From positions 1 through 26,628 of the forward strand of contig CAZNDF010000001.1 of assembly GCA_964571775.1 (NCBI GenBank): 26,628 nucleotides of DNA, written 5' to 3'. The position numbers and the translations under genes were made by a program. This DNA is from an uncultured Gammaproteobacteria bacterium (GTDB lineage: Bacteria; Patescibacteriota; Microgenomatia; UBA12405). This document shows positions 8,489 to 8,730 of the stretch, piece by piece; the stretch's first letter is position 1; every line of letters starts with the position of its first letter. Below the pieces are notes generated by a model. That model ran no database searches. It saw nothing but the letters and a program-made list of their open reading frames with translations, and was not told where the DNA came from.

Positions 8489-8498
8489 TAAGGAGGTG
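8489..8498 (+). promoter_or_regulatory. Extended Shine-Dalgarno TAAGGAGGTG upstream of rpsU
   Basis: Perfect 10-nt complement of the canonical 16S anti-SD, 10 nt before ATG 8509. Confidence 0.85.
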
Positions 8499-8508
8499 CT
8501 ATTTTTTA

Positions 8509-8730
8509 ATGCCAATTATAGTAGAAAAAAAGAAAGGTGAGTCTAAAGACGATGTAATCGGTAAATTTAGACGCCTATGTTTGGAAGAGGATATTACAGA
8601 AGAAGTCAGAAAAAGGACTGCTTATGTGAAACCTTCTGAAGAGAGATATGCCAAGAAGAAAATAATTGTTTGGAGAGATAAATGCCGCAGACGTGCAAAA
8701 AACTCGAGAAGACATGATGTTAAAAGATAA
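8509..8730 (+). CDS. rpsU: 30S ribosomal protein bS21
   Basis: V..K.GES...IGKFRR...I.EEVRKR.AYVKPSEER pattern; basic; upstream of yqeY as usual. Confidence 0.85.
   Translation: MPIIVEKKKGESKDDVIGKFRRLCLEEDITEEVRKRTAYVKPSEERYAKKKIIVWRDKCRRRAKNSRRHDVKR

Follow-up and report, generated by a model that had tools for sequence, protein, structure and literature searches.

The rpsU gene of a Candidatus Shapirobacteria genome (Microgenomates, Patescibacteria/CPR), which encodes ribosomal protein bS21, is preceded by an extended Shine-Dalgarno (SD) sequence that outranks those of all other called starts of the genome and that is kept by most of its orthologues. A possible function for this element is a feedback loop in which bS21 would limit its own synthesis through the availability of the anti-SD. 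The stretch of DNA analyzed here in full (the window; 26,628 nucleotides) is contig C1 of G000, a MAG of 660 kb with a G+C content of 34% and a completeness of 82%. Many near-identical Shapirobacteria contigs are misnamed in the databases, as 'uncultured Gammaproteobacteria', 'Paludibacter sp.', 'Methanoperedens sp.' or 'Parcubacteria'.

The rpsU gene lies on the forward strand at positions 8509-8730 and encodes a protein of 73 aa, which is recognized by the Pfam family Ribosomal_S21 (PF01165) and matches bS21 chains in the PDB. Upstream of its ATG (8509), positions 8489-8498 read TAAGGAGGTG. Nine of these nucleotides, AAGGAGGTG at 8490-8498, form a perfect 9-bp complement of 5'-CACCUCCUU-3' in the 16S rRNA of congeners, and T8489 would face a U there, so that the duplex is limited to 9 bp. 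An A/T-rich spacer of 10 nt (8499-8508) separates the SD from the ATG, or 12 nt if counted from the GGAGG core. The pairing energy is -14.8 kcal/mol with the congeneric tail and -15.8 kcal/mol with an E. coli-type tail, and the perfect extended SD that the first-pass annotation had described before rpsU thus holds up. Congeneric tails serve as the reference because no 16S gene is assembled in G000. All 8 of the 8 complete congeneric 16S genes end in GGATCACCTCCTTTGAGG, and the tail reads GGATCACCTCCTTT, with the canonical anti-SD CCUCC, in these eight and in eight further genes from the order. From its congeners we infer a canonical anti-SD for G000 as well, and the rpsU SD is predicted to pair with the 16S nucleotides equivalent to 1533-1541.

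This SD is carried by a transcript that appears to begin at a promoter of its own. The top promoter-like site within 8300-9700 consists of a -35 hexamer TTTACA (8443-8448, forward strand), which falls in the 3'-terminal part of the preceding FN3/dockerin gene, and a -10 hexamer TAAAAT (8467-8472, forward strand) after an 18-nt spacer, together giving 10 of 12 matches. TTTACA is kept upstream of many rpsU orthologues, and a -10 box, GGTAAAAT or GGTAGAAT, recurs at the same relative position in most of 65 orthologous regions. With transcription placed to start about 7 nt past the -10 hexamer, the position of the promoter implies a 5' UTR of about 30 nt (8479-8508, forward strand). This leader has no significant fold (z = -0.14) and no Rfam match at an E value of 1 or better. 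As predicted here, these features give rpsU a sigma-70-type promoter of its own and a leader that is short and unstructured. In classical ribosomal-protein autoregulation, a structured mRNA leader mimics the rRNA binding site, as in the S15, L20 and S4 leaders. The rpsU leader resembles these in that a ribosomal protein gene carries a conserved leader element; it differs in that the element complements rRNA instead of mimicking it and in that fold and Rfam match are both lacking.

Downstream, rpsU is probably cotranscribed with two further genes of the forward strand. The first is a yqeY-like gene (8717-9151; Pfam YqeY), whose ATGATG start (8714-8719) overlaps the 3' end of rpsU, an arrangement that makes translational coupling of yqeY to rpsU probable. 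The second is ybeY (9159-9521; Pfam YbeY), which encodes the endoribonuclease of 16S 3'-end maturation and is the third gene of the likely rpsU-yqeY-ybeY unit. Among 86 related loci, yqeY follows rpsU on the same strand in 85 and the synteny extends to ybeY in 82. The rpsU/yqeY overlap of 1-10 nt is kept in the genus and gives way to a gap of 8-69 nt in other families. Nearly all relatives have a single rpsU per genome. Such an arrangement raises an alternative that we consider improbable, in which the SD would be an operon-level sensor of the status of the 16S 3' end that drives the whole unit, the output of bS21 and YbeY tracking how many 30S subunits have a tail that is free and mature. The persistent synteny, the overlap of yqeY with the rpsU stop in the genus and the Pfam assignment of the 3'-end maturase YbeY are all consistent with a sensor. 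Its direction, however, looks wrong for homeostasis, because more mature tails would give more maturase, and the gap before yqeY in other families points to looser coupling there.

The strength of the rpsU SD is exceptional both in the window and in the genome. As previously claimed, the other starts of the window are nearly devoid of SDs: the 30 remaining called starts are all at -8.4 kcal/mol or weaker, the runners-up being ssb (-8.4), whose AAGGAG is indeed made by the tail of rpsF, and an ORF at 14084 (-8.2). Across the coding-potential gene set of G000, rpsU ranks first among 665 called starts. Second is a MacB-like permease at -13.2 kcal/mol, and the same order of first and second is found in the congener G018 (300 kb), where rpsU leads 313 starts. 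Strong SDs are thus not widespread, and the suggested outlier status of rpsU stands. The permease (MacB/FtsX-like; G000:C3:757-1977, reverse strand, L110, and contig C2 of G018) has the SDs AAGGAGGT and GAGGAGGT in the two genomes, so that by sequence its SD is also conserved between these two congeners.

Rank by itself has to be read with care. Matches at -4 kcal/mol or stronger are found 133 times in the SD regions of G000, compared to 187 and 218 times in two mock regions, and a few mock matches are as strong as -13 to -14 kcal/mol. The rank of rpsU in one genome is therefore insufficient on its own, and its significance comes solely from the identity of the top gene, rpsU (1 in 665 a priori), and from the repetition of this result in relatives. 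Motif counts give a similar picture of scarcity. The pattern GGRGGTG-N3-13-ATG occurs 540 times in 31 genomes of the genus versus 455 times for a reversed-pattern control, with a median excess of 3 such extended sites per genome, and AGGAG-N5-10-ATG occurs 106 times versus 61 for the control. A motif-centered scan at -10 kcal/mol or stronger proved too permissive, returning 894 sites that are mostly intragenic.

The strongest SDs of G000 belong to small orphan ORFs. Four such ORFs outside the coding-filter calls have SDs that are likewise strong or even stronger, namely C10:9869 (-17.8 kcal/mol, the extreme), C10:9642, C95:30 and C35:693. They fall within G000:C10:9624-10168 (L107), C35:693-911 (L108) and C95:30-203 (L109), and the encoded products are of 68, 99, 73 and 58 aa. 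None has a Pfam match or a homologue in the fetched parts of relatives. Given these ORFs and the permease, the earlier statement that rpsU alone has a strong SD is slightly too strong: rpsU does top the 665 called starts, but the permease and a few uncalled small ORFs also have strong SDs. Since most other genes start without an SD, these comparisons show rpsU to belong to the roughly three mRNAs that are predicted to engage the anti-SD in each genome of the genus.

The rpsU SD is also conserved. The 65 distinct upstream regions of orthologues that were compared cover seven families, namely the family of the window, including its genus, and six more from the order. In 59 of them, an SD of -12 kcal/mol or stronger precedes rpsU. 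The sequence retained is GGAGGTG or, in most of the variants, GGGGGTG, the latter an A-to-G change that still pairs via G.U, and at the level of the order it is kept while the flanks diverge and protein identity drops to about 43%. The spacing from GTG to ATG ranges from 5 to 10 nt among orthologues. In five of the six exceptions (L023, L064, L080, L091 and L102), a TAAAAT or TAGAAT box lies 6-8 nt ahead of the start codon, and rpsU looks leaderless in all five. Across the 65 regions, rpsU is either SD-led or leaderless, and a leader without an SD is almost never seen. The gene switches between the two forms among related species, the SD-bearing leader having been lost in five. As these five species have swapped the SD leader for a leaderless start, the SD is dispensable. 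One of the five, L064, sits on a 3.5-kb CPR contig inside G041, a 6.3 Mb Bacteroidia MAG, and looks like binning contamination.

Similar elements recur at greater distances. At the level of the class, rpsU SDs of -14.5 to -16.1 kcal/mol are present in four further genomes of Microgenomatia, which represent two families, and at the level of the phylum about 20 of 28 rpsU loci have GG[AG]GGTG or GGTGGTG. In some families the SD had seemed to be missing; it is actually located 26-58 nt upstream, ahead of a hairpin. This arrangement, in which GGAGGTG or GGGGGTG is separated from the start by the hairpin, is found in L195, L196, L198, L199, L202 and L216, all from other Patescibacteria families, and may constitute a split ribosome-binding site. 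The 16S tails of four of the genomes with a distant SD are canonical. A lineage with a variant anti-SD was sought where the rpsU SD is GGTGGTG or seemed absent, and none was found: every informative 16S 3' end inspected is canonical, including that of G069, whose family has GGTGGTG before rpsU.

Overall, the upstream comparison shows every sign of strong purifying selection on the rpsU SD across the order and beyond, and the expectation that orthologues in relatives would keep it has been borne out. A chance match or neutral relic could appeal to the mock regions of the same genome, which come within reach of the rpsU value. Conservation across orthologous upstreams effectively refutes such an origin, to which we give next to no credence: the SD persists between diverged flanks, and rpsU is top-ranked in two genomes.

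How the rest of the genome initiates translation bears on what the SD is for. The sequences ahead of about 600 starts in G000 show no enrichment of G and an enrichment of A at positions -11 to -8. In 120 of 692 G000 genes, an exact TA[TAG]AAT hexamer has its end between positions -9 and -6 relative to the ATG, compared to about 3 per position elsewhere, and this peak persists when longest-ORF starts are used. This identifies the A-rich signal as the -10 box of leaderless genes, and at least 17% of G000 genes look leaderless. Examples in the window are the genes at 20298-21026, 21117-21371 and 21634-22884 on the reverse strand and at 25832-26539 on the forward strand. The first of these encodes a release-factor-like protein of 242 aa with GGQ and a PxT-type motif, from which the usual N-terminal domain is apparently absent. 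Elsewhere in G000, prfB (RF2, SPF motif; C45, ~1109-2185, forward strand) is a single open frame, with neither an SD-dependent programmed +1 frameshift nor an internal SD.

Translation of leaderless mRNAs is common in Actinobacteria, Deinococcus and archaea. The starts of rpsT, rpsP and rplU in the present lineage resemble those systems, as does that of rpsU itself in five related species; the rpsU of the window differs from them, its -10 box ending 36 nt before the ATG and its leader carrying an SD. Ribosomal protein genes were compared in five genomes of the order. A -10 box lies 6-9 nt ahead of the start codon of rpsT, rpsP and rplU, which look leaderless. The genes rpsB, rpsO, rpsR and rpsF lack an SD, except for a weak AAGGAG (-8.2 kcal/mol) before rpsR in G018 and moderate sites of -7.7 to -9.5 kcal/mol before rpsB and rpsO in G029 and G030. 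A moderate AAGGAG (-8.9 kcal/mol) precedes rplM. Among the eight ribosomal protein genes checked in these five genomes, only rpsU has a strong extended SD; the S10 ribosomal protein cluster was also looked for in G000 and is not assembled. Since other ribosomal protein genes do without an SD, high expression alone does not explain that of rpsU.

These observations frame the main rival to a feedback loop, which is that the rpsU mRNA is simply one of the few with a leader and that its ribosome-binding site, though strong, is an ordinary one. SDs would then be read normally and would have been lost by most genes because these are leaderless or coupled, and rpsU, which happens to have a leader, would need an SD for translation at the level of a ribosomal protein. 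We rate this explanation as unlikely on balance, yet as one to be taken seriously. Genes with an extended SD are in excess by 13-29 per genome in the sister families f2, f4 and f6, and among them are highly expressed ones such as those for Hsp20, GroEL and pilin-like proteins, which suggests that the ribosomes of these families are able to use SDs. The permease SD kept in two congeners, the unstructured rpsU leader, the ease with which rpsU turns leaderless once the leader is lost and the absence of most of the Bacteroidia pocket (see below) all fit an ordinary site. Such a site does not explain, however, why rpsU is the only one of the eight ribosomal protein genes to keep a strong extended SD, why 9-10 bp are held over phylum-scale distances when 4-6 bp are enough for initiation, or why rpsU is again the one outlier in the unrelated Bacteroidia. 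Dedicated control of rpsU is favored by its sole strong SD among the eight genes, by the excessive length of that SD and by the pattern of being either SD-led or leaderless.

A broader survey tempers any simple connection between bS21 and the scarcity of SDs. In a phylum sample of 250 genomes (an additional row, G195, is an unpublished genome and supports no claim), the AGGAG-N5-10-ATG proxy gives ratios from 1 to about 4, which places these genomes between SD-poor and moderate. In the CPR family f22 (G048, G076, G101, G125 and others), bS21 was not found in 12 of 12 genomes, and the proxy relative to its reversed control gives ratios mostly of 0.8-1.4 and up to 1.9, or about 1.0 overall. As this family is equally SD-poor with no bS21 detected, SD scarcity does not need bS21. 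The idea that loss of bS21 goes with SD-rich genomes is thereby ruled out. The SD-competent sister families and f22 together weaken the link between bS21 and SD scarcity.

The closest known parallel comes from the Bacteroidia. In Flavobacterium johnsoniae and other members of this class, rpsU is autoregulated translationally via anti-SD sequestration (Jha 2020 PMC7797042; McNutt 2023 PMC9976891; NAR 2026 PMC13000453), and Tyr54 of F. johnsoniae bS21 stacks on A1534. The two lineages share an SD-poor genome with a canonical anti-SD and with rpsU as an outlier bearing an extended, conserved SD. In both, starts have fewer SD-like sequences than mock regions do, and related groups form a gradient from those in which rpsU is the only SD gene to those with a small set of such genes. 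In the family of the window, the bS21 Tyr54 position is taken by an aromatic residue. The differences are equally clear. The present lineage belongs to the Patescibacteria, with no bS6 helix, no bS18 signature and a strongly basic bS21 tail. Its duplex is of 9-10 bp (about -15 kcal/mol), as opposed to up to 13 bp (mode about -20) in Bacteroidia; background initiation is largely leaderless rather than led by upstream adenines; and Bacteroidia covary the rpsU SD with a variant anti-SD, whereas the 16S tails inspected here are all canonical. No relevant paper on an rpsU SD or on leaderless initiation in CPR turned up in the literature searched.

The structural part of the parallel was assessed against the F. 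johnsoniae chains 7jil_z (bS21), 7jil_w (bS18) and 7jil_k (bS6) from the PDB. In an ungapped alignment from the KPS motif, which compares sequences and not structures, bS21 Trp55 lies opposite F. johnsoniae Tyr54, 13 residues past the conserved KPS proline. Trp is found at this position in 56 of 65 loci of the order, all of them Shapirobacteria, and in the remaining CPR families it is occupied by Arg, Lys or another residue. Because families with Arg or Lys also keep the rpsU SD, Trp55 is not required for the signature. A tracking of Trp55 with genome-wide SD loss was considered and only a loose link was found, families f3, f5 and f7 having a low excess of SDs without Trp. The C-terminal part of bS21, which in Bacteroidia is far less basic than that of other bacteria, is highly basic in the protein of the window, with 13 Lys/Arg in its last 27 residues as compared to 3 in the last 19 in F. 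johnsoniae.

The two partner proteins, both encoded on the forward strand without an SD, depart further. Aligned through a Bacteroidia bS18 onto 7jil_w numbering, bS18 (rpsR, 16857-17108; 83 aa) has Gly for Tyr32, Lys for Phe50, Ser for Asn56 and Arg for Gln58, so that three of the four uniquely conserved Bacteroidia signature residues differ in addition to Tyr32 and only Lys37 is kept. The bS6 protein (rpsF, 16063-16353; 96 aa) ends three residues past the core strand (RYLIL-KKE), and the C-terminal helix with Trp100, Arg103 and Lys107 is absent. Judged from these alignments, the Bacteroidia pocket is not conserved here, and at most one of its elements is, namely bS21 Trp55 in the place of Tyr54. 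The first-pass annotation had suggested that the same circuit may operate convergently in this lineage. Its sequence signature is present (an SD-poor genome, an anti-SD retained in congeners, an outlying rpsU and a conserved SD), and its structural basis is mostly absent.

Despite the altered pocket, the SD-competent sister families, the SD-poor family f22, the canonical 16S tails throughout and the five species in which rpsU dispenses with the SD, all of which count against it, a feedback loop through anti-SD availability, as a variant of the Bacteroidia circuit, remains our preferred reading, at a confidence somewhat short of even. bS21 adjoins the 16S 3' tail on the platform of the 30S subunit and would join late, and owing to this position and timing the rpsU SD would tie bS21 synthesis to the freedom of the tail. 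On 30S subunits without bS21, the tail would be exposed and rpsU translated well; on bS21-replete subunits, it would be held or shielded and rpsU translated poorly. Shielding could possibly be achieved by stacking of Trp55, as by Tyr54 on A1534 in F. johnsoniae, in a pocket that would necessarily differ from that of Bacteroidia. The outcome would be homeostatic negative feedback on bS21, with yqeY and ybeY coupled downstream. Given the position of bS21 and the Bacteroidia precedent (Jha 2020; McNutt 2023), negative feedback is the most economical mechanism. A further precedent is Francisella tularensis, in which translation depends on bS21 paralogues (PMC9578407, PMC13374519). There too the bS21 content of ribosomes alters which mRNAs are translated, although F. 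tularensis relies on paralogues, as opposed to the single rpsU found in nearly all genomes here.

The sign of the effect of bS21 may also be questioned. In E. coli, bS21 was reported in older work to aid SD recognition, the opposite direction to that of the proposed loop. Were bS21 to act positively in this lineage, rpsU would be subject to positive feedback or restricted to mature, bS21-bearing subunits. The bS21 of the window is in fact closer to gammaproteobacterial bS21, with which it shares a basic tail (E = 3e-6 to 1e-4), than to that of F. johnsoniae (E = 0.03). We nonetheless hold a positive role to be very unlikely, a shade more so than the sensor of 16S 3'-end status, as positive feedback on a stoichiometric ribosomal protein would be hard to keep stable.

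A more far-reaching version of the feedback loop, which we regard as doubtful, would extend it to the whole ribosome pool. In Shapirobacteria, and perhaps in many Patescibacteria, ribosomes replete with bS21 would be blind to SDs owing to a pocket that involves Trp55 and has neither the bS6 helix nor the bS18 signature, and bS21-free 30S subunits would act as specialized ribosomes for a small SD regulon. In the genus this regulon would have shrunk to rpsU and one or two other genes, and in the sister families it would still include the pilin-like, Hsp20 and GroEL genes. If true, this would amount to an independently evolved, phylum-wide switch based on ribosome heterogeneity in organisms that otherwise translate leaderless mRNAs.

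Taken together, these results describe a lineage dominated by leaderless and SD-less starts, a trait that matters for gene calling in CPR. Should the feedback loop operate, control of bS21 by anti-SD availability would not be peculiar to Bacteroidia and would represent a recurrent solution in lineages that abandoned SD-led initiation. The bS18/bS6 pocket that is regarded as its basis would not be needed, which would move attention to bS21, and the loop would help to explain why SD-poor bacteria retain a perfect anti-SD.
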